Below are positions 5,360 to 61,298 of a DNA stretch of 64,000 bases, in pieces. The notes beneath the pieces are model-generated. The model searched no databases. It was not told where the DNA came from and saw only the letters and a program-made list of their open reading frames with translations. Made by a program: the position numbers and the translations under genes. Numbering within the stretch: the first letter of the stretch is position 1; every line of letters starts with the position of its first letter. Source of the DNA: Deltaproteobacteria bacterium (GTDB taxonomy: Bacteria > Desulfobacterota > JAENJC01); NCBI GenBank assembly GCA_030646755.1, contig JAUSKU010000076.1, forward strand, positions 5,162 to 69,161, read 5' to 3'.

Positions 5360-6333
5360 TGTGCCCTTTTTGTAAAAGCTACAAAACAGGGAAGTTGTTT
5401 GACCTGGATAAAAGGGTATACGGCGACAGATTTTCAATAGTTAAATGCGAGGTATGTGGAATCGCATGGACGGACCCTATCCCGGATGAAAGAGAAATCT
5501 CCAAATTCTACCCGGAGGAATATCATGGCAAGATGGGTAGGCAAAGGTTCATGCCTGTCATGGAGTTTCTGGTCTGGCTTTCGAGAAGCAAAAGGGCCAA
5601 AGAGGTCTCATCCCTTAACTCCGTTTTACCCGGAAAGATATTGGATATCGGTTGCGGAAGAGGCTGGATGATAAGCATCCTTAAAAGGATGGGATGGGAG
5701 GTATACGGCACAGAACTTTCCGTGGAGTCTTCGTCATTTGCAAGGGAAAGTCTCAATTTGAATGTACTTACAAAAAAGGTCGCTGACTGTAATTTCCAAT
5801 CAGGACATTTTGATGTAGTCACACTTTGGCACGTCCTTGAACACCTTCCGGACCCGATCTCAGGCCTCAAAGAGATAAACAGGATATTAAAAAATAAAGG
5901 GGCGTTGGTGGTCGAGGTCCCTGATTTAGGAGGATTTCAGGCGAGGTTATTCGGGAACAAGTGGTTTCATCTGGATTCGCCAAGGCACCTGTTCCATTTT
6001 ACAGATAAAACATTAAAAAGGTGCCTTGAGGATACCGGGTTTAAGGTCATAAAGCGCAGAAACATGTCCTGGGAATACGATCTCTTCGGCTTTGTTCAAA
6101 GTAGTTTAAATCTTCTCTGTTTTAAGTTCGACTATCTTTACAACTTCCTCAGGAGCAGGGATGGAAGAATGATTAAAGGGCCTCCGCTAAGATATATCTG
6201 GGACCTCCTGGCAAGCATTGTTTTATTCCCTTTTCTATTAGCTGTCTCAGTGCCAGTATCTTTAATAAGTTCGGCACTGGGGGCAGGAGGCACCATCAAA
6301 TATCATTGTATAAAAAGGCCTGATTTAAAATGA
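5359..6333 (+). CDS. class I SAM-dependent methyltransferase with an N-terminal Cys4 zinc ribbon
   Basis: CPFCKS...CEVCG ribbon; LDIGCGRGW motif I; FDVVTLWHVLEHLPDP. The start overlaps the upstream stop (TAATG). Confidence 0.75.
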   Translation: MCPFCKSYKTGKLFDLDKRVYGDRFSIVKCEVCGIAWTDPIPDEREISKFYPEEYHGKMGRQRFMPVMEFLVWLSRSKRAKEVSSLNSVLPGKILDIGCGRGWMISILKRMGWEVYGTELSVESSSFARESLNLNVLTKKVADCNFQSGHFDVVTLWHVLEHLPDPISGLKEINRILKNKGALVVEVPDLGGFQARLFGNKWFHLDSPRHLFHFTDKTLKRCLEDTGFKVIKRRNMSWEYDLFGFVQSSLNLLCFKFDYLYNFLRSRDGRMIKGPPLRYIWDLLASIVLFPFLLAVSVPVSLISSALGAGGTIKYHCIKRPDLK

Positions 6334-17910: not shown

Positions 17911-20418
17911 ATGAACAACGAGAACTTTAAAGACCTCCTGCCCCTCGTCAGCAAACCAAGCCGCTATCTCGGAACCGAGGTCAACTCCATACACAAGGAC
18001 CTGGATAAGGTAGATATCAAGATCGCCCTGGCATTCCCTGATGTATATGAAGTTGGGATGTCCCATCAGGGACTCCATATCCTTTACCATATATTAAACA
18101 GTTTCCCATACGTCGCGGCAGAGCGGGCATATGCCCCCTGGCTCGATATGGAGAAGCTCCTCAGGGAAAGGGGCCTTCCGCTTTCCTCCCTGGAATCAAA
18201 CATCCCTCTTCGGGAGTTCGACATATTGGGGTTTTCCCTCCAGTACGACCTCTGCTATACCAACATGCTCAACATGATGGACCTTGCAGATATCCCTCTC
18301 CGGGCTTCGGAGAGGGATGGGACCTTCCCCCTGGTTATTGCAGGAGGCCCCTGCGTATTCAACCCTGAGCCTGTGGCAGAATTCCTTGATGCAGTTCTTA
18401 TAGGTGACGGGGAAGAGGCGCTTCCTGAGATAGTTGAGACATACAGGAACTGGAAGTTGAGTGGATGCGAAGGTGGGAAGTTGGGCCTTCTTCGAACCTT
18501 GGCGACAATTAAGGGTGTGTATGTGCCTTCCTTCTTCGATGTCTCATACAAAGACGACGGGACTGTTAAAGAGATAAGACCGAAGTATGACGACTATCCA
18601 AAGGTCGAAAAGAGGATAGTCGGAGACCTCAACACCGTCCCATATCCTGATAAGCCGATAGTCCCTTTCATGCAGATCGTCCATGACAGGGTAAACCTGG
18701 AGGTAACAAGGGGATGCACAAGGGGTTGCAGGTTCTGCCAGGCAGGGATGATATACAGGCCAACAAGGGAGAGGACGCCTGAGAAGCTCCAGGAGATAGC
18801 AGAGAAGGCGTTGCGTTCTACCGGGTACGAAGACCTGTCACTCCTCTCCCTTTCCACAGGCGACTACTCCTGTATAAGCGATCTGCTTGCCAATCTTATG
18901 GACAGATATTCCGATGAAAAGATTGCCATATCCCTGCCTTCCATGAGGGTCGACACCATGAGCCCTGAGCTGATCTCTGAGATAAAGAGGGTCAGAAAGA
19001 CAGGTTTTACAATGGCCCCGGAGGCCGGAAGCGAGAGGCTCAGGGAGGTAATTAACAAGGGGATAACGGAGGAGGACCTCCTGAATTCAGTCCGGCAGGT
19101 ATTTGAGGCGGGATGGGATTCGGTAAAACTCTACTTCATGATAGGCCTGCCAACGGAGACCGATGACGATATCGTGGCCATAGCGGATATGGCGGGCAAG
19201 GCGATGAAGATATGCAGGCAACTGAGGGGGAAGAGTGCCACGGCGTCAGTTGCAACCTTTGTCCCAAAACCCCACACCCCTTTTCAGTGGGAGCCTCAGA
19301 TGAGGATTGACGAGACAAGGAGGAGGCATGATATACTAAAGAGGGAGCTGAAGAAAAACAGGGTGACCTTCAAGTGGCATGAACCTGCAATGAGCGAATT
19401 GGAGGGGGTATTCGCAAGAGGGGACAGGCGCTTGTCAAAAGTAATAGCCAGGGCCTTCGAACTTGGGTGCAGGTTTGACGGATGGGGGGAGATCTTCAGG
19501 TACGACCTCTGGCAGAGGGCCTTCGATGAGTGCGGAGTTGTTCCTTCTTTTTACCTGAGAAAAAGAGGTTTTGAAGAGACCCTACCATGGGACCACATAG
19601 ATTCTGGGGTATCAAAGAAGTACCAGGTATTAGAGGCAAAAAGAAGCTACGAGAACGTATTTACTCCGGACTGCCGCTATGATGACTGCACCGGCTGCGG
19701 CCTTTGTGACTTCAAGACGATAAAAAACAGGATTGGGGAGGGAGATGTCACGAGAAGGCCCAAACCTCTCCTTAAACCAAAACCGAACCTTGCAGTGCGG
19801 CGGATAAGGCTCACCTACTCAAAGCTTGAAGAGGCCAGGCTTCTGGGACATCTGGAGCTGGCCAGCGTGTTTTCGAGAGCAGTAAGGAGGGCGGGCATTC
19901 CGGTGCGCTACTCCTCAGGATTTCACCCAGCGCCCAGGATAATATTCTCCCCCCCGATATCTCTCGGAATGGAATCTATGGAGGAGTTTGCAGATATAGA
20001 GATAGAGGGTTATATTTCCTGTACGGAGATAAAGGACAGGCTGAACCTGGAACTCCCTAAAGGCATCAAGATAACAGAGACTGGAGACATAGAGATGGGG
20101 CTACCTGCCGTCACTTCGGCAGTGACGAAGGCGGACTATGAAATAAAGTGGCCAGTGGTCGGTGGTCAGGGGTCAGCGGTTTTAAGGGATTTTATGGGAA
20201 AGGACTCATTTCTCTTCAAAAAGGAACGAACCGGTAGGGAGTATGATATAAGGCCGCTGATTGAACGGCTTGAGGCTGCGGACAATAAGATAGGGATGAC
20301 CATAAAGGCCGGGAAGGAAGGGGGCATAAAACCTGGGGAGCTTGTCCAGACCCTCCTGGGCCTCAATGATGAAGAGACAAAGTTGCTGAGGATTATGAAG
20401 ACGAGGACGTACTTATAA
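17911..20418 (+). CDS. radical SAM protein of the TIGR03960 family fused to a C-terminal TIGR03936/DUF2344 domain
   Basis: N-terminus VSKPSRYLGTEVNSIHKD; radical SAM CTRGCRFC. At 835 aa the length equals TIGR03960 (~600) plus DUF2344 (~230). It sits directly upstream of an RNase G gene, the usual genomic context. Confidence 0.75.
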   Translation: MNNENFKDLLPLVSKPSRYLGTEVNSIHKDLDKVDIKIALAFPDVYEVGMSHQGLHILYHILNSFPYVAAERAYAPWLDMEKLLRERGLPLSSLESNIPLREFDILGFSLQYDLCYTNMLNMMDLADIPLRASERDGTFPLVIAGGPCVFNPEPVAEFLDAVLIGDGEEALPEIVETYRNWKLSGCEGGKLGLLRTLATIKGVYVPSFFDVSYKDDGTVKEIRPKYDDYPKVEKRIVGDLNTVPYPDKPIVPFMQIVHDRVNLEVTRGCTRGCRFCQAGMIYRPTRERTPEKLQEIAEKALRSTGYEDLSLLSLSTGDYSCISDLLANLMDRYSDEKIAISLPSMRVDTMSPELISEIKRVRKTGFTMAPEAGSERLREVINKGITEEDLLNSVRQVFEAGWDSVKLYFMIGLPTETDDDIVAIADMAGKAMKICRQLRGKSATASVATFVPKPHTPFQWEPQMRIDETRRRHDILKRELKKNRVTFKWHEPAMSELEGVFARGDRRLSKVIARAFELGCRFDGWGEIFRYDLWQRAFDECGVVPSFYLRKRGFEETLPWDHIDSGVSKKYQVLEAKRSYENVFTPDCRYDDCTGCGLCDFKTIKNRIGEGDVTRRPKPLLKPKPNLAVRRIRLTYSKLEEARLLGHLELASVFSRAVRRAGIPVRYSSGFHPAPRIIFSPPISLGMESMEEFADIEIEGYISCTEIKDRLNLELPKGIKITETGDIEMGLPAVTSAVTKADYEIKWPVVGGQGSAVLRDFMGKDSFLFKKERTGREYDIRPLIERLEAADNKIGMTIKAGKEGGIKPGELVQTLLGLNDEETKLLRIMKTRTYL

Positions 20419-23001: not shown

Positions 23002-23100
23002 TCCCCCTCTCCCTTGACGGGAGAGGGTTGGGGTGAGGGTGAAACGTCACCATGCTGGTTCCCCTCCCCTTAATCCCCTCCCACCAGGGGAGGGGATTAA
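23002..23100. repeat. G-rich palindromic MITE-like element, copy 2, intergenic and in reverse orientation
   Basis: ccccctctcccttgacgggagagggttggggtgagggtg plus cccctccccttaatcccctcccaccaggggaggggattaa are the reverse complements of modules A and B. Confidence 0.6.
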
Positions 23101-23139
23101 TAGATGGTTGCTTTAGTCAAAGTCTATTCTTAGGTTATT

Positions 23140-27152: not shown

Positions 27153-27165
27153 ATACAATACTTTT

Positions 27166-27242
27166 AATCCACAGATTACGCAGATGGCGCAGATTGATTT
27201 ATAGGCAAAGATTAAAATCTGTGGAATCTGTGAAATCTGCGG
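27166..27242. promoter_or_regulatory. array of 9-10 bp-phased AATCTGYGG / CCGCAGATT repeats (three inverted plus three direct) upstream of the phosphomannomutase gene
   Basis: aatccacagatt / acgcagatggcgcagattg / aaatctgtgg aatctgtga aatctgcgg. A related array is at 54693..54851. Confidence 0.4.
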
Positions 27243-27263
27243 ATAAAATGTTTTGAGGAGCAT

Positions 27264-28724
27264 ATGATCAACAAAGGCATTTTCAGGGAATACGACATAA
27301 GGGGCATAGCGGAGAAAGACCTTACCGATGAGGTGGTAACGCTGATAGGGAAGGGGTACGGGACCCTTGTAAGGCGTGAGACGTCAGACGTCAGACGTAA
27401 GCCGAAAGTGGCCGTGGGGCGGGATGTAAGGCTCAGCTCTAAGAGGCTCAGGGACGCCCTTATAAACGGTCTGACCTCTGTCGGTATTGACGTCATGGAT
27501 GTAGGCGAATGCCCGACCCCTCTCCTGTATTTCGCCGCATATACGCGGGATGTGGACGGCGGTATAATGATAACCGGGAGTCACAACCCCCCGGAATACA
27601 ATGGTTTCAAGATACTGATAGGTAAAGACACCATCCACGGCGGAGGGATTCAAGACCTCAGAAAGCTTATAGATACAGGTTCATTCGCCACCGGCCCAAT
27701 CGGCAGCGTTGAAGCCTTTGACGTGATCCCGGCCTACATCAAGGACGTAAAAGAAAGGTTCAACGCTGCCGGGAAAAAGATAAAGGCCGTAGTTGATTCA
27801 GGTAACGGCACAGGCGGCCTCGTTGCCCCGGAACTGTTAAAAAGCATAGGAGTCGATGTAATCCCGCTCTTCTGTGAGGTGGACGGCAATTTCCCGAACC
27901 ACCACCCCGACCCTACAGTCCCGGAAAACCTCAAAACCCTTATAGACAGGGTCATATCCGAGAATGCAGACCTTGGCATTGCCTATGATGGGGATTCGGA
28001 CAGGATCGGTGTTGTAAATGAGAAGGGCGCCATTATCTGGGGAGACCAGCTTATGATCCTCTTTGCGAGGGACATATTGAAGGGGACTGTCCCAGATTTA
28101 CGGACACCCCCCCTCAATCCCCCCCTTGCTAAGGGGGGGACGAAAGGGGGGGTAGAATCGGGACTGTCCCCGGCTTTGACGGAGAAACCTGTATTCGTTG
28201 GTGAGGTGAAGTGTTCCCAAGTCATGTATGACGACATTGAGAAGAAGGGCGGAAGGGCCATCATGTGGAAGGCAGGGCACTCCCTGATAAAAGACAAGAT
28301 GAAGAAGGAGAAGGCTGTCCTTGCAGGGGAGATGAGCGGGCATATTTTCTTTGCCGATAGATACTATGGTTTCGATGACGCCATCTACGCCACCTGCCGG
28401 GTCATAGAGATACTGAAAAAAGAAGGGAAACCTCTTTCCGAGCTTCTGGCCGACCTTCCAGAGACCTTTAACACGCCGGAGATCCGGGTAGACTGCCCGG
28501 ATGACAAGAAGTTCGATATAGTAGAGAGGGCGAAGGAGAAACTGGCAAAGGACTATCCCATAATCGATGTAGATGGTGTTAGAGTGAAGTTTAAAGAGGG
28601 TTGGGGCCTGATAAGGGCGTCCAATACCCAGCCTGTATTGGTGACAAGGTTTGAGGCGTCATCGGAAGAAAAACTCTTGGAATACAGGCATATTGTAGAG
28701 AAACTGCTGAAGGAGGTTATTTAA
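27264..28724 (+). CDS. phosphomannomutase/phosphoglucomutase (alpha-D-phosphohexomutase) with a ~30-aa in-frame insertion
   Basis: TGSHNPPEYNGFK active-site loop; GEMSGHIFFADRYYGFDD. The insertion lies between the LFARDIL and VFVGEVKCS blocks. Confidence 0.85.
   Translation: MINKGIFREYDIRGIAEKDLTDEVVTLIGKGYGTLVRRETSDVRRKPKVAVGRDVRLSSKRLRDALINGLTSVGIDVMDVGECPTPLLYFAAYTRDVDGGIMITGSHNPPEYNGFKILIGKDTIHGGGIQDLRKLIDTGSFATGPIGSVEAFDVIPAYIKDVKERFNAAGKKIKAVVDSGNGTGGLVAPELLKSIGVDVIPLFCEVDGNFPNHHPDPTVPENLKTLIDRVISENADLGIAYDGDSDRIGVVNEKGAIIWGDQLMILFARDILKGTVPDLRTPPLNPPLAKGGTKGGVESGLSPALTEKPVFVGEVKCSQVMYDDIEKKGGRAIMWKAGHSLIKDKMKKEKAVLAGEMSGHIFFADRYYGFDDAIYATCRVIEILKKEGKPLSELLADLPETFNTPEIRVDCPDDKKFDIVERAKEKLAKDYPIIDVDGVRVKFKEGWGLIRASNTQPVLVTRFEASSEEKLLEYRHIVEKLLKEVI
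28094..28159. repeat. diverged G-rich palindromic element inserted in the phosphomannomutase CDS, flanked by 11-bp direct repeats
   Basis: ccccccctcaatcccccccttgctaagggggggacgaaaggggggg is flanked by GGGACTGTCCC at 28083..28093 and 28160..28170. It is related to module B of the element family. Confidence 0.5.
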
Positions 28725-33133: not shown

Positions 33134-34412
33134 CAGATAGCGCCCTTCTTCCGATGTCCTTCCTGTAATGCACGCCGTTCCAGTTTATCTTTGAAACAGC
33201 CTGATACGCACTATCAATCGCCTCTTTGATGCCATTGCCCAATGCGGTCACGCCCAAGACCCTTCCGCCGTTTGTTACAACCTTCCCATCTTTCAGAGCA
33301 GTCCCGGCATGGAATACCATCACGTCATTCATCTTTGCCGCGTCATCAAGGCCCTTTATCTCGTCCCCTTTTTTGTAATCACCGGGGTATCCGCCTGCTG
33401 CCATGACAACGCATACCGAGGCCCTATTATCCCACTCAATCCTTATATCCGAAAGCCTTTCGTCAATCACAGCCTCCATGACCTCTATGATGTCGCTCTT
33501 CATCCTCATCATCAGAGGCTGTGTTTCAGGGTCACCGAACCTGGCATTGAACTCCAGTGCCTTTGGGCCTTTTCTGGTCATCATCAAGCCCGCATAAAGA
33601 ACTCCTTTGTAAGGCCTCCCTTCCGAAGCCATGCCTTGCACTGTCGGAAGCATGATCTCTTTCATGACCCTTTCCCTGAGTTCATCAGTCAATACTGGCG
33701 CAGGGGAATAAACTCCCATGCCTCCGGTATTCGGTCCCTCATCGTTATCATAGATCCTTTTGTGGTCCTGGGCAGAAGGCATGGGAAGAACGATCTTCCC
33801 GTCGGTAAAGGCCAGGAAGGAGACCTCTTCACCCTCCAGAAACTCCTCTATTACCACCTCGTCCCCCGCAGCGCCAAAGGCCTTGTCCCCCATTATCATG
33901 TTCACTGCATCAATCGCCTCTTCCAAAGTTGATGCGACTATAACGCCTTTCCCTGCTGCAAGGCCTGAGGCCTTGACTACTATGGGAGCACCCTTGGCCT
34001 TAACATAAGAAATGGCCTTCTCCTTCTCTGTAAAGGCCTCGTATTCTGCGGTAGGTATGCCGTATTTTTTCATAACGGCCTTTGAGAACGCCTTGCTACC
34101 CTCTATCTCGGCGGCCCTCCTGCTTGCCCCGAATATCCTCAGCCCAGCATTCTCGAATTCATCAACTATCCCTGCTGTCAGAGGCACTTCAGGCCCGACC
34201 ACAGTAAGATCGATACCTTCCTTTTTTGCAAAGGAGAGAAGCCGGTCTATATCCTCGACTTTGATGTCCACACACTCTGCAATCTGAGCAATGCCGGCAT
34301 TCCCAGGGGCGCAAAATAATATTGAATTTTGAGTTTTAAATTTTGTACTTTGTTTTATCTTCCAAACAAGGGCGTGTTCGCGACCGCCGGAGCCTACAAC
34401 TAAAATCTTCAT
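33123..34412 (-). CDS. purD: phosphoribosylamine--glycine ligase
   Basis: MKILVVGSGGREHALVWK...APGNAG. The start was chosen at the internal ATG (34412) matching the PurD N-terminus; the ORF track extends to 34463. Confidence 0.9.
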   Translation of the reverse strand: MKILVVGSGGREHALVWKIKQSTKFKTQNSILFCAPGNAGIAQIAECVDIKVEDIDRLLSFAKKEGIDLTVVGPEVPLTAGIVDEFENAGLRIFGASRRAAEIEGSKAFSKAVMKKYGIPTAEYEAFTEKEKAISYVKAKGAPIVVKASGLAAGKGVIVASTLEEAIDAVNMIMGDKAFGAAGDEVVIEEFLEGEEVSFLAFTDGKIVLPMPSAQDHKRIYDNDEGPNTGGMGVYSPAPVLTDELRERVMKEIMLPTVQGMASEGRPYKGVLYAGLMMTRKGPKALEFNARFGDPETQPLMMRMKSDIIEVMEAVIDERLSDIRIEWDNRASVCVVMAAGGYPGDYKKGDEIKGLDDAAKMNDVMVFHAGTALKDGKVVTNGGRVLGVTALGNGIKEAIDSAYQAVSKINWNGVHYRKDIGRRALSAKA

Positions 34413-48080: not shown

Positions 48081-48176
48081 CATCCCCTCCCCTGGCGGGA
48101 GGGGATGAAGGGGAGGGGGAATTTTAGCATGACAGTTCACCCCCACCCCAACCCTCCCCCGTCAAGAGGGAGGGAG
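48081..48176. repeat. G-rich palindromic MITE-like element, copy 3, intergenic, ordered module B then A
   Basis: catcccctcccctggcgggaggggatgaaggggaggggg ... cacccccaccccaaccctcccccgtcaagagggaggg. Confidence 0.6.
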
Positions 48177-53572: not shown

Positions 53573-54445
53573 CTAATGAGACTTGAAGTCAATATCAAAG
53601 ACATGATATGTGCTTCCCGGCGGGAAGTAGATAAGTCCCCAGTAAGAAACAACTGCGGTTAAGAATGCGACAATGGCAAGGTTCGCCCCCCTCCTCCCCT
53701 TCCAGCCGTAGAATAGCCTCATGTGTATCGCAAGGCCATACGCAAGCCATGTGATGAGAGACGTGGAATTAACCAGGTCCCACTGCCACCATGTTCCGAA
53801 CAGGATCGAGGAATAGTAAGAACCGAGGGCAAACATCACTGTATGGGTTATAAAACCGAGATTGATGTAACGGAAGATGAGGTCATCCAAAACTTCAGGT
53901 CCCAGGTTTTGCTTTCCCCTGGCCACTGACCACTGACCACTGACCACTAATAAATAAACCCCTGCCAAACAAGCAGCCGCAGTATAACTCCCAAAGGCCA
54001 CCCATGAAAACAGGGCATGAAAGTCAACCCAAAGGCTCCTCTCTGATATGGTCAATGGTATTCTCTCCGTCTTGAATGTAAGACCGTAAAAGATTATGAG
54101 TGACGCAATAGGAACGGTTGTTAAAATAAGTAACCTGAAATGTCCATGGATAGACCTGTAAGAAAATGCAGTGTAAAGAAGCATAAACCACGACCCTGCC
54201 AGTGCCGCCTCGTAAGTGCCAAATACTGGAGGGTGCCCTATCCCATACCAGCGGATGCCGGCTGATGTGGCTTGGAAGAACAGGCCTGTCGTCAACATCA
54301 AAGCTGACAACCTTGCCTGTAACATCATCGCTGATATAAGGGATACCGAATATAAAAAGATACTCCCAATAAGAAACCAGAACTCTATTCCGCTCACTGC
54401 GCCACCTCTCCCGCGACTATCATCTGAATAATGAGCCTCTTGCAA
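53573..54445 (-). CDS. ccsA: cytochrome c assembly protein, CcsA/ResC family
   Basis: Tryptophan-rich WWD heme-handling motif FGTWWQWDLV; polytopic. Confidence 0.75.
   Translation of the reverse strand: MQEAHYSDDSRGRGGAVSGIEFWFLIGSIFLYSVSLISAMMLQARLSALMLTTGLFFQATSAGIRWYGIGHPPVFGTYEAALAGSWFMLLYTAFSYRSIHGHFRLLILTTVPIASLIIFYGLTFKTERIPLTISERSLWVDFHALFSWVAFGSYTAAACLAGVYLLVVSGQWSVARGKQNLGPEVLDDLIFRYINLGFITHTVMFALGSYYSSILFGTWWQWDLVNSTSLITWLAYGLAIHMRLFYGWKGRRGANLAIVAFLTAVVSYWGLIYFPPGSTYHVFDIDFKSH
53921..53948. repeat. (CCACTGA)3.5 heptanucleotide tandem repeat (GTGGTCA on the coding strand) inside ccsA
   Basis: ccactgaccactgaccactgaccacta encodes VVSGQWSVA. A related GTGGTCAG motif occurs at 20148..20180 and 20422..20466. 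Confidence 0.5.
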
Positions 54446-59291: not shown

Positions 59292-61298
59292 GTGAAGAAA
59301 AGAAAGAAGCAGGAAAACCTTACTACGCAAAAAACCTCTATTTCACAAGCACATAGCGATCCTCAACAACATAGCGCTTTTATTTTTTCCGAGCATCTCC
59401 TGCCATTTATTACGGCTTTTTCTGTTGCCCTTATCACCTTCATAATCTACCTCCCCACCCTTAATAACGGCTTTGTAAACTGGGACGACCCCACATATAT
59501 CTACGAAAACCCGCACATACGCTTATTAAACCTCTCTTTTATAAAATGGGCCTTCTCATCTGTATACTTCAGCAACTGGCACCCGTTAACGGTGATCTCC
59601 TATGCATTGGATTATGCCGTATGGGGGCTAAACCCTTTCGGATACCACCTGACCAACATTGTTTTTCATGCGGCAAATACGTTTCTGGTTTTTGTCCTGG
59701 CTGTACGTTTAACCGAATGTGGAATAACTCAAAATTTAAAATTCAAAACTCAAAACTTTCAGTTGATCTCCGCCTCTGCAACCGCCCTTCTCTTTGGCAT
59801 ACACCCTGTCCATGTGGAGTCTGTTGCGTGGGTGTCTGAAAGAAAGGATGTCTTATGCGCCTTTTTCTTCTTATTAAGCCTTATTTCATACGTCAAATAT
59901 GTATCTGTAAAGACTACTAAGCCTTATGTCCTGAGTCTTGTCTTTTTCATACTGGCGCTGATGAGCAAACCGATGGCTGTCTCATTGCCTGCGGTACTGC
60001 TGATACTGGACTTTTATCCGTTAAAGAGATTCCAGGCCGGGAATGAAAAGATAAAAAGAGTCATGGTGGAAAAACTGCCTTTCTTTCTGTTCACCCTTTT
60101 GTCGTCATTGATAACCATATGGGCTCAATACTCTGAAGGAGCGTTAAAGCCGCTTGAAATCTATCCCCTTACTACCCGATTTTTTGTAGCCATATGGGCG
60201 ATACTTTTCTATCTGTCAAAAATGCTCCTTCCTCTCGACTTTGCCCCGTTTTACCCATACCCTTCCCAAATCACCATAATGCACATAGGGGCCTTTATCC
60301 TAGTGTCAGGACTGACAGCCTACTGCATTAAGAATAGACTCTTATCCGCCGTCTGGTCTTATTATATAATCACACTTATCCCTGTTATCGGAATAATTCA
60401 GGTTGGCAACTCTGCGGCGGCCGACCGTTATACATACCTGCCCTCCATAGGACTGTTCGTGCTTGTGGGCATAGCTATAGCCCGATTCATTGAAATGCAT
60501 TCGAAGTATAGAACGGCGGTAGCGGTCGTGCTTGCAGGCCTTGCTATTTTTACTGTAAGCATGACCATTAAACAGATAGGTGTGTGGAGGGACTCTATTA
60601 CCCTCTGGTCTCATGAAATTGCAATATTTCCCGAGACTATGGCAGCTCCTTATGATTACCGTGGGACCGCTTATAGCAAATTAGGCAATTATGAGAAGGC
60701 CATTGCGGATTTTAATATGGCAATAAAGTTAAACCCTGCTTATCCTGAGGCTTATAACAACAGGGGAGATGTTTATTTTAAATTGGGAGATTATCAGCAA
60801 GCAATCAAAAATTACAGTACCGCAATTGAGTTAGCTCCCGGATATGCCGAAGCTCATAATAACCGTGGACGTATCTATGCTATGCAAGGGAGACTTGATG
60901 AGGGGATGCATGAATTTCAGACTGCATTAAAATTGAAACCTATTTCAGAAGCCCACAGCAATCTGGGAAGCATCTATGCAAGTAAAGGAAGACTAACAGA
61001 AGCGATCGCTGAATTTCAGAAAGCGTTGAGTCTCGAGCCGGATGAACATATCTATTACTACGGCTTAGGTAATGTCTATCATACTCTGGAGCAGCTGGAT
61101 GAGGCCAAATATTATTATGAGGAAGCTTTACGTCTGAACGGGAATTTTGTAGAAGCCCATTACAGTTTAGGAGTAGTTTATATTAAAATGGGATTTAAAG
61201 AAAAAGGAATAATGGAATTAGAATCAGCGTTAAAGCTAAAACCTGGATTTGAACCTGCCCGCCAACTACTGGAATCCCTCATTACTTCCCGTCATTGA
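59292..61298 (+). CDS. TMTC-like protein, tandem paralog of 57474..59225 (GTG start)
   Basis: The N-terminal 450 aa are ~75% identical to the upstream paralog; longer TPR tail. Confidence 0.65.
   Translation: MKKRKKQENLTTQKTSISQAHSDPQQHSAFIFSEHLLPFITAFSVALITFIIYLPTLNNGFVNWDDPTYIYENPHIRLLNLSFIKWAFSSVYFSNWHPLTVISYALDYAVWGLNPFGYHLTNIVFHAANTFLVFVLAVRLTECGITQNLKFKTQNFQLISASATALLFGIHPVHVESVAWVSERKDVLCAFFFLLSLISYVKYVSVKTTKPYVLSLVFFILALMSKPMAVSLPAVLLILDFYPLKRFQAGNEKIKRVMVEKLPFFLFTLLSSLITIWAQYSEGALKPLEIYPLTTRFFVAIWAILFYLSKMLLPLDFAPFYPYPSQITIMHIGAFILVSGLTAYCIKNRLLSAVWSYYIITLIPVIGIIQVGNSAAADRYTYLPSIGLFVLVGIAIARFIEMHSKYRTAVAVVLAGLAIFTVSMTIKQIGVWRDSITLWSHEIAIFPETMAAPYDYRGTAYSKLGNYEKAIADFNMAIKLNPAYPEAYNNRGDVYFKLGDYQQAIKNYSTAIELAPGYAEAHNNRGRIYAMQGRLDEGMHEFQTALKLKPISEAHSNLGSIYASKGRLTEAIAEFQKALSLEPDEHIYYYGLGNVYHTLEQLDEAKYYYEEALRLNGNFVEAHYSLGVVYIKMGFKEKGIMELESALKLKPGFEPARQLLESLITSRH

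Follow-up and report, generated by a model that had tools for sequence, protein, structure and literature searches.

How does a conserved metabolic gene come to carry a long palindrome within its coding sequence and remain intact? The question is raised by a gene for a phosphomannomutase/phosphoglucomutase (PMM/PGM) that lies in a 64,000-nt stretch of contig JAUSKU010000076.1, from a genome labelled Deltaproteobacteria bacterium; this whole stretch is referred to here as the window. The original prediction, made from the DNA of the window alone, had described a palindromic element inserted in frame in this gene and bounded by an 11-bp direct repeat, which it took for a target-site duplication (TSD); as the two copies of the repeat stand 77 bp apart, it supposed that a frameshift had been repaired by a compensating indel, unless the repeat was itself part of the element. 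It is this last alternative that holds: the 11-mers form the termini of a repeat family with dispersed copies, and the insert is very probably a small non-autonomous hairpin repeat, built of two nested modules, now fixed in frame within a permissive PMM/PGM loop.

The inserted element and its host protein

The 11-mer GGGACTGTCCC is present exactly, and at the coordinates first proposed, at both ends of the insert, 77 nt from start to start, and all the homopolymer runs of the palindrome, two of C7 (28107-13 and 28119-25) and two of G7 (28133-39 and 28146-52), fall between its two copies. Allowing one mismatch, the 11-mer has five matches in the window against 1.09 expected, a number reached by one of 100 shuffles, while the pattern CCCCCCCN{3,20}CCCCCCC, searched on both strands of the window, occurs at this site only (0.04 expected). 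Folded as DNA, positions 28082-28171 give a hairpin with a minimum free energy of -34.6 kcal/mol (z -5.25; none of 200 dinucleotide shuffles as good), with z reaching -7.1 when the conserved AG and CG flanks are included and ranging from -4.4 to -8.1 over the folds as a whole; as RNA the hairpin reaches -63.8 kcal/mol. When the window is searched by nhmmer with a profile of the 58-nt family unit described below, the outer parts of the insert match as two separate arms, the left at model positions 1-23 (E 2.5e-6) and the right at model positions 38-58 (E 2.8e-5), the latter overlapping by 3 nt the last G run of the centre. The window element is, as judged from its sequence, a composite in which a core hairpin stands in place of the tip of an outer shell (Table 1), and in general type its C7/G7 centre agrees with the other G/C-run modules of the window, a kinship already suspected.

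This anatomy removes the puzzle of the reading frame. The shell with one flanking G and one flanking C measures 60 nt and the composite 90 nt, so no frameshift has to be explained, and because both 11-mers lie inside the inserted unit their 77-nt spacing is irrelevant. Translated from 28083 to 28172, the unit supplies 30 codons (GTVPDLRTPPLNPPLAKGGTKGGVESGLSP) in a read-through frame that is open and rejoins the conserved EKPVFVGEVKCS block, the predicted peptides being GTVPDLR, GGVESGLSPALTEK and GTVPDLR…VESGLSPALTEK. The two copies of the 11-mer are indeed read in different frames, as had been seen (GTVP versus GLSP). The element has terminal inverted repeats with 12-nt arms, GGGGACTGTCCC and GGGACTGTCCCC, that are 92% complementary, and since GGGAC-T-GTCCC is itself near-palindromic, such a terminal inverted repeat reads as a direct repeat too.

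The host protein matches all four Pfam domains of its class (PGM_PMM_I-IV) above cut-offs, with E values from 4.5e-36 to 7.7e-15, and the Pseudomonas aeruginosa PMM/PGM structures 1k35/2fkf in the PDB with an E value of 2.3e-131. Its phosphoserine (TGSHNP), metal (DGDxDR), sugar (GEMSGH) and phosphate (RASNT) loops are all present, and S106/H107, D242/D244/D246/R247, E356/S358/H360 and R451/S453/N454/T455, residues that we take to serve catalysis and ligand binding, are invariant in an alignment of 27 sequences. By domain architecture and motifs the host is an alpha-D-phosphohexomutase of the PMM/PGM, AlgC/ManB type. Aligned with the P. aeruginosa enzyme, query residues 274-311 (38 residues) face only seven, 273-279 of 2fkf_A, which leaves about 31 extra, where the original prediction had counted some 29; about 30 have been added to an otherwise intact enzyme. 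An AlphaFold2 model built with the 27-sequence alignment has a mean predicted local distance difference test (pLDDT) score of 81.5 and a confident core, and residues 276-306, between a helix (260-274) and a strand (310-314), score below 50. The insert is thus predicted to form a disordered excursion at the start of domain III, between its first helix and first strand, and in this model of PMM, the one host examined, its site appears as a surface, tolerant part of the protein.

Table 1. Features of the PMM/PGM gene and its inserted element (window positions)
Feature	Coordinates	Strand	Basis or remark
PMM/PGM host gene, 486 aa, intact	27264..28724	+	Pfam and PDB matches, alignment
Conserved left flank AG	28081..28082	+	Copy alignment
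Composite palindromic element, G + 88 nt + C = 90 nt	28082..28171	+	Single long hairpin
Shell left arm GGGACTGTCCCAGATTTACGGAC	28083..28105	+	Includes left 11-mer (28083-28093); nhmmer match
Core, 48-nt C7-N5-C7-N7-G7-N6-G7 hairpin in place of shell tip	28106..28153	+	Run pattern, fold
Shell right arm (GGG)TAGAATCGGGACTGTCCC	28150..28170	+	Includes right 11-mer (28160-28170); nhmmer match
Conserved right flank CG	28171..28172	+	Copy alignment
Junction GCTTTGACGGAGAAACCT (ALTEKP)	28173..28190	+	Loop DNA comparison

Other short repeats lie in and beside the same gene. A second hypervariable loop of the protein is encoded by a heptamer array (CGTCAGA × 3.4, window 27375-27398, peptide RRETSDVRRKPK); in most close orthologues this loop keeps a length of 11-12 residues and is made of other heptamers (GGGGTCA, GTGGTCA, ACAACAG), and the array resembles the STRR heptamers of cyanobacteria. 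Further heptamer arrays are found at 20147-20180 (AGTGGTC), 53919-53948 (CTGACCA), 59726-59757 (AACTCAA) and 34318-34345 (AATTTTG), at least the first two of them within long open reading frames (ORFs) by their coordinates. Directly upstream of the PMM start, an intergenic palindrome at 27163-27248 carries 9-mer repeats of AATCTGTGG, for which Rfam returned sub-threshold hairpin look-alikes only.

A dispersed repeat family with a common shell

The shell is not confined to PMM orthologues, the same unit being found in unrelated genes and between genes. Copies were sought with exact-match patterns, which bias the census, and all counts given here are of copies among the matches listed and hence lower bounds; the taxonomy of the hosts is that of the labels of metagenome-assembled genomes (MAGs) only. 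The family pattern, composed of both 11-mers and GTAGAAT, so that the 11-mer at both ends is partly a matter of construction, is found at no fewer than 120 metagenome loci and on 12 predicted viral contigs (IMG/VR, L250-L261), where by our own estimate well under one chance match is expected. On genome contigs there are family members at three loci in two assemblies, L055 and L057 in one Nitrospirae MAG and L058 in the MAG of the PMM orthologue P0009. When one genome of each species was scanned for pairs of GGGACWGTCCC standing 36-66 nt apart, the matches listed were mostly unrelated palindromes of many phyla, but included these three loci and, in L012, a more divergent relative of the 58-nt unit.

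De-duplication leaves 119 distinct copies, whose modal length, 58 nt, is that of the basic unit; with its flanking G and C this unit makes 60 nt or 20 codons. The 88-nt length accounts for 15 of 130 copies before de-duplication, and the window shares this architecture with 14 other loci. The shell is an imperfect palindrome, GGGACTGTCCC-AGATTTACGGAC…GTCGTAGAATC-GGGACTGTCCC, usually set between AG and CG: among the 119 copies, A stands at position -2 in 73% and G at -1 in 84%, while C stands at +1 in 80% and G at +2 in 72%, with the same frequencies in coding and non-coding copies. Conservation extends beyond what the search imposed, the ATTTAC of the left arm being invariant in 55 distinct aligned 58-mers and absent from the search pattern. 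The left arm is never an exact mirror of the right in any copy aligned, so that the asymmetry of the arms is real, and nearly every copy keeps the T·T mismatch midway along the paired 11-mers. Within the variable centre, changes on both sides affect five base pairs and cover 26 sequence cells, a value that none of 500 shuffles matches and that compares with 2-7 cells in slid controls; these compensatory changes indicate that the hairpin itself is maintained.

Within the shell, the core can be exchanged. The window-type core occurs without a shell, on contigs of similar kinds, at L137, L176, L219, L227, L232 and L239, a C5/G5 version of it lies inside shells at no fewer than nine unrelated loci, and an intact shell with a CCCTCTCCC/GGGAGAGGG core is found twice in one giant ORF of the viral contig L254, which comes from the same metagenome as the PMM orthologue P0021.

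Many copies lie inside genes, where coding status was called from ORF length, requiring at least 60 open codons on both sides of the copy, with a Pfam check in ten cases. By this measure 48 of the 119 copies (~40%) are internal to ORFs and 13 more lie at ORF ends; just two of 126 copies separate two long ORFs, and disrupted genes are therefore rare. On each strand of the unit two frames are open and the third holds a stop (TAG or TAA), and the frame used in PMM, GTVPDLRT(E/K)(R/Q)S(G/E)VVESGLSP, is also that of most internal copies (32 of 48), the next most common being a frame of the reverse strand, GDSPDSTT…SGTVP. The hosts confirmed by Pfam are a NifEN-type oxidoreductase, a histidine kinase in which HATPase_c holds the insert, a radical SAM enzyme of the MiaB/RimO type (UPF0004, Radical_SAM and TRAM domains), a Kdo transferase, UbiD, the mannose-1-phosphate guanylyltransferase ManC, MqnC/CofH, the isoleucyl-tRNA synthetase IleRS, FabF and PyrK. 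Viral copies in frame lie in three long unannotated ORFs (L253, L256 and L259) and in the giant ORF of L254, which has two composite copies. Two ManC genes have different element variants at one site, and in L205, whose PMM is only 56% identical to that of the window, a shell with different junctions occupies the same loop; both cases indicate that permissive loops are hit repeatedly.

Outside the census itself, Rfam gave no above-threshold match for the element region, where only far sub-threshold hairpin look-alikes were returned, and BLAST of a 62-nt consensus against annotated plasmids and phages gave no match. A peptide census with a tandem-dimer query returned nine short ORFs only. Literature searches with the 11-mer led to eukaryotic primers and similar sequences only, and no description of such a family was found. 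The family is abundant in groundwater and sediment bacteria and previously undescribed.

Several further observations concern related modules and copies. The window has a second in-frame palindromic insertion, in a carbamoyltransferase gene (ORF 533-2506), where inverted G/C-run modules, CACCCCCACCCCC…GGGGGAGGG and TCCCCTCCCTTGGCGGGAGGGGATTGAGGGGAGGGGGA, at 1656-1756 encode the peptide …VTPTPTHPRQGGGEERKEEESLPSLGGRGLRGGGD… in the linker between Carbam_trans_N (aa 23-359) and Carbam_trans_C (aa 449-638). Intergenic CCCCTCCC/GGGAGGGG module pairs at 23005-23111 and 48083-48174 are 87-95% complementary across both loci, and the same module type forms the core inside shells in the relatives L007 and L254. 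A PurL-like ORF of ~1390 codons at L219 and the MiaB/RimO-like ORF at L137 each combine several in-frame G/C-run cores per protein with a shell copy, the core insertions giving the peptides PPHPPLGKGGSEGGV, PLPPFTKGGLGGI and PPSPPFRKGGMGGF, and NPPLSPLSKGGIKGGY twice. At L058 a shell copy (5608-5665) between trpC-like and trpF-like ORFs supplies the C-terminus …EGTVPDLRT and one in-frame TAG, with the downstream ORF in the same frame; the locus resembles the linker of a trpCF fusion, broken by a single stop. Viral contigs L250-L261 hold five shell copies in frame, in three long ORFs and one of ~2000 residues, and phages may carry or spread the shell family. Palindromes and tandem arrays ending in GGGGAC(A/T)GTCCCC are also seen in many phyla among the matches of the genome-contig scan (L010-L129), including a Planctomycetota type, GGGACAGTCCCATTTTCGCGGCG…CGCCGCGAAAATCGGGACAGTCCC, and arrays with 25-56-nt periods (L075, L084, L027, L049 and L036); across phyla both arms have the same base in the middle of the 11-mer in 108 of 162 pairs, a figure that is suggestive but not conclusive and that a simple hairpin would not predict.

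History of the loop and competing explanations

The close clade of the window protein comprises 20 proteins of 71-93% identity, highly conserved except in the stretch between FARDIL and (V/I)GEVKCS, which is hypervariable. We compared the DNA of this loop in the window and eight relatives. P0006 has, like the window, the 88-nt unit with a C/G-run centre, whereas P0008 and P0009 have a 58-nt unit with the same ends and a short centre, GGGACTGTCCCAGATTTACGGAC(A/G)GAGCAGAGCGGAG(T/C)CGTAGAATCGGGACTGTCCC, and in P0021 a CCCTCTCCC/GGGAGAGGG centre lies between the left end and a right end that has decayed. In P0005 and P0010 the loop consists of heptamer runs (GGGGTCA and GACGTAA), in P0002 it holds a different small hairpin, and in P0011 none of these repeats is present; outgroup orthologues of 58-62% identity have a short loop (KKKPGATF…). 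The element begins at the same point of the loop in the window, P0006, P0008, P0009 and P0021, and apart from P0021, with its decayed end, these share the right junction, which takes the form CGGCTTTG(A/T)(C/A)(G/A)GA(G/A)AAACC in the window, L003, L004, L005 and L002. The same junctions in two sub-clades only ~80% identical in DNA suggest that the insertion is old in the lineage.

The original prediction had looked to relatives for the empty site. They yield a presence/absence pair, P0008 and P0011, 96% identical in DNA and differing by one clean 60-nt indel, but not the pristine site that was hoped for. P0011 keeps TCCCC and the junction CGGCTTTGACGGAGAAACC, elsewhere seen only beside the element, and is nested among element-bearing sequences, and for these reasons it is better read as a secondary in-frame deletion of 60 nt without microhomology than as a site that was never occupied. 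Taken together, the loop sequences suggest an old insertion that was later deleted in P0011 and replaced by other short repeats in P0002, P0005 and P0010.

How such a repeat could be tolerated can be outlined as follows. The ribosome would read through the element, adding a charged segment of 30 residues rich in Gly, Pro, Ser and Thr and leaving the conserved motif residues intact; the insertion would then persist in PMM because it is nearly neutral, with selection sparing a copy only where it lies in frame, free of stops, in a tolerant loop. After the entry of a repeat, the loop would become unstable and open to nesting, replacement and deletion. The family may spread through a single-stranded hairpin on which an enzyme acts in trans, in the manner of repetitive extragenic palindromic (REP) sequences and their REP-associated tyrosine transposases (RAYTs) or of the insertion sequences (ISs) of the IS200/IS605 type. 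We put this forward tentatively, at somewhat less than an even chance, because there is no TSD and because strand asymmetry, conserved flanks and structure-preserving covariation point the same way; the lack of a TSD and the strand-specific features make a MITE (miniature inverted-repeat transposable element) of the DDE type unlikely. At L243, where two inverted copies are paired, no transposase lies between them, only a 141-aa ORF for a small secreted protein. The copy in the window is probably an ordinary neutral passenger, and an ancient one.

Several points weigh against this account. No true pre-insertion site was recovered among the orthologues, P0011 being the lone element-less allele. 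No mobilising enzyme was identified, and no dedicated search for a RAYT/TnpA or a parent IS was made. The 64-kb window holds a single shell copy, the nhmmer profile revealing no other, and there is none in the 10-21 kb around the closest relatives, P0002 and P0005, so that current activity in this genome is at most a possibility. The invariance of the termini is partly forced by the search patterns, and translation of the insert in PMM and the activity of the enzyme are predictions. Finally, the account does not explain why copies strongly favour one frame and, with respect to the host gene, one orientation. Selection may act on the peptide, as the other open frames of the consensus translate into Cys/Arg-rich or hydrophobic peptides, or the mechanism of insertion may be directional.

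A broader interpretation, which we regard as rather unlikely, would make the family one branch of a superfamily of palindromes ending in GGGGAC(A/T)GTCCCC and served by a single-strand-specific enzyme, the 60/90-nt branch having adapted to genes as a general generator of loop insertions. Repeats with such ends do occur among the matches listed in Planctomycetota, Actinomycetota, Bacillota, Proteobacteria, Omnitrophota and others, and the adaptation would consist in a 3n length, stop-free frames, a benign disordered peptide and exchangeable cores. If this reading were true, the family would provide natural loop insertions for proteins and phage genes in these bacteria.

Could the loop instead be an ancestral peptide of the PMM lineage, selected for a function such as regulation or interaction, with the palindrome incidental? 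Sub-clades only 80% identical in DNA retain it at one site, between the same junctions, open and in frame, as such a peptide would lead one to expect, but the same DNA unit stands in unrelated genes and between genes, close orthologues lack it or have quite different repeats in the loop, outgroup orthologues have a short loop and the segment is predicted to be disordered. We consider this explanation improbable.

Still less probable is a classical MITE that duplicated an 11-bp target, GGGACTGTCCC, and had its frame restored by a later indel. It is easy to see why this was proposed, given an exact direct repeat bounding a palindrome and a spacing that is not a multiple of three. The same 11-mer, however, ends all 119 copies at unrelated loci and so belongs to the element and not to the target; none of these copies has flanking direct repeats of 5-8 nt, and flanking matches of 2, 3 and 4 nt are seen in six, one and two of them. 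Frame repair is needless for an 88-nt unit that, with its flanking G and C, inserts 90 nt or 30 codons. With the 11-mer in every family copy and the flanks free of duplication, the TSD model was rejected, and with it the compensating indel.

Equally improbable is that the element goes untranslated, through ribosomal bypassing between the 11-mers or through removal from the mRNA. Bypassing is known in T4 gene 60 and in the byp elements of yeast mitochondria, and the matching sequences at both ends and the very stable mRNA hairpin would suit it. A 77-nt hop between equivalent 11-mer codons nevertheless lands out of frame and meets a stop after ~13 codons, whereas the read-through frame is open to the far side of the insert, and ribosome hopping was rejected on these grounds. 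Across the family, genic copies are almost always in stop-free frames, with few that split ORFs, as expected if the copies are translated. An assembly artefact or chimaera can be all but dismissed: the window does belong to a MAG, and hairpins with G/C homopolymers are difficult for sequencing, but the identical gene with its element was assembled independently from SRR13727527 (L001), which shows that the element is no artefact, and orthologous copies are present in ENA, NCBI and JGI assemblies from other samples.

Place among known repeats and significance

To our knowledge, the textbooks offer essentially one case of selfish palindromes that invade housekeeping genes in frame, the Rickettsia palindromic elements (RPEs). 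Many metabolic genes carry these palindromic repeats in frame (Ogata et al. 2000; summarised in PMC10969869 and PMC3184786). The family described here resembles them in being made of short, palindromic, non-autonomous, dispersed repeats that lie in frame in unrelated housekeeping genes and add a tolerated peptide. It differs in size (60 or 90 nt against about 105-150 nt), in host (uncultivated groundwater and sediment bacteria labelled Deltaproteobacteria or Nitrospirae, against Rickettsia), in its architecture of a shell with exchangeable cores, in its strong frame bias and in its copies on predicted viral contigs. With a hairpin, multiple copies, recurrent in-frame hosts and a tolerant site it belongs to an RPE-like class, a class of function and not of homology; it is not a member of the RPEs proper, from which size, host and architecture, not a sequence comparison, set it apart.

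Other known repeats share some of its features. Like REP/BIME sequences with their RAYTs and like IS200/IS605 elements, its members are small imperfect palindromes without a TSD and with conserved mismatches and asymmetry, their structure is likewise kept by compensatory changes, and many copies lie at gene ends or between genes. REPs are ~20-40 nt long, extragenic by definition, and carry a 5' GTAG outside the stem. In the present family, by contrast, GTAG lies inside the 3' arm (CGTAGAAT) and not 5' of the stem, and ~40% of the copies are intragenic. The GC clusters of yeast mitochondria, including byp, are GC-rich mobile hairpins that invade protein-coding genes, with byp bypassed by the ribosome so that no frame is required. 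The likeness to byp lies in GC-rich hairpins within protein-coding genes; our element differs in being in frame and stop-free, and family copies in genes avoid the frames that contain stops. Bacterial MITEs such as Correia/NEMIS, ERIC, BOX, RUP and Nezha, among others (reviewed in PMC10969869), are likewise non-autonomous and multi-copy, with terminal inverted repeats and occasional in-frame fusions to ORFs. They are usually 100-400 nt long, with TSDs and a recognisable parent IS, whereas the terminal inverted repeats of the present family are accompanied by no TSD.

For the biology of these bacteria, the family places beside the RPEs a second, unrelated and apparently much more abundant set of in-frame palindromes, found in uncultivated, free-living bacteria and in their phages. 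Natural alleles with and without the element are available in 96%-identical genes that differ only by a 60-nt unit, and the recurrent insertions in the same loops (PMM twice, ManC twice), together with the modular variants, make the tolerance of proteins to insertions of 20-30 residues open to test. Also testable through it are the cause of the frame bias, whether selection on the peptide or directional insertion, and the enzyme that moves hairpin repeats leaving no TSD. The family also accounts for low-complexity loops that look odd when MAG proteins are annotated, such as GTVPDLRT…VESGLSP and PPLxPLxKGGxKGG. The family is a new and abundant example of selfish DNA inside protein-coding genes.

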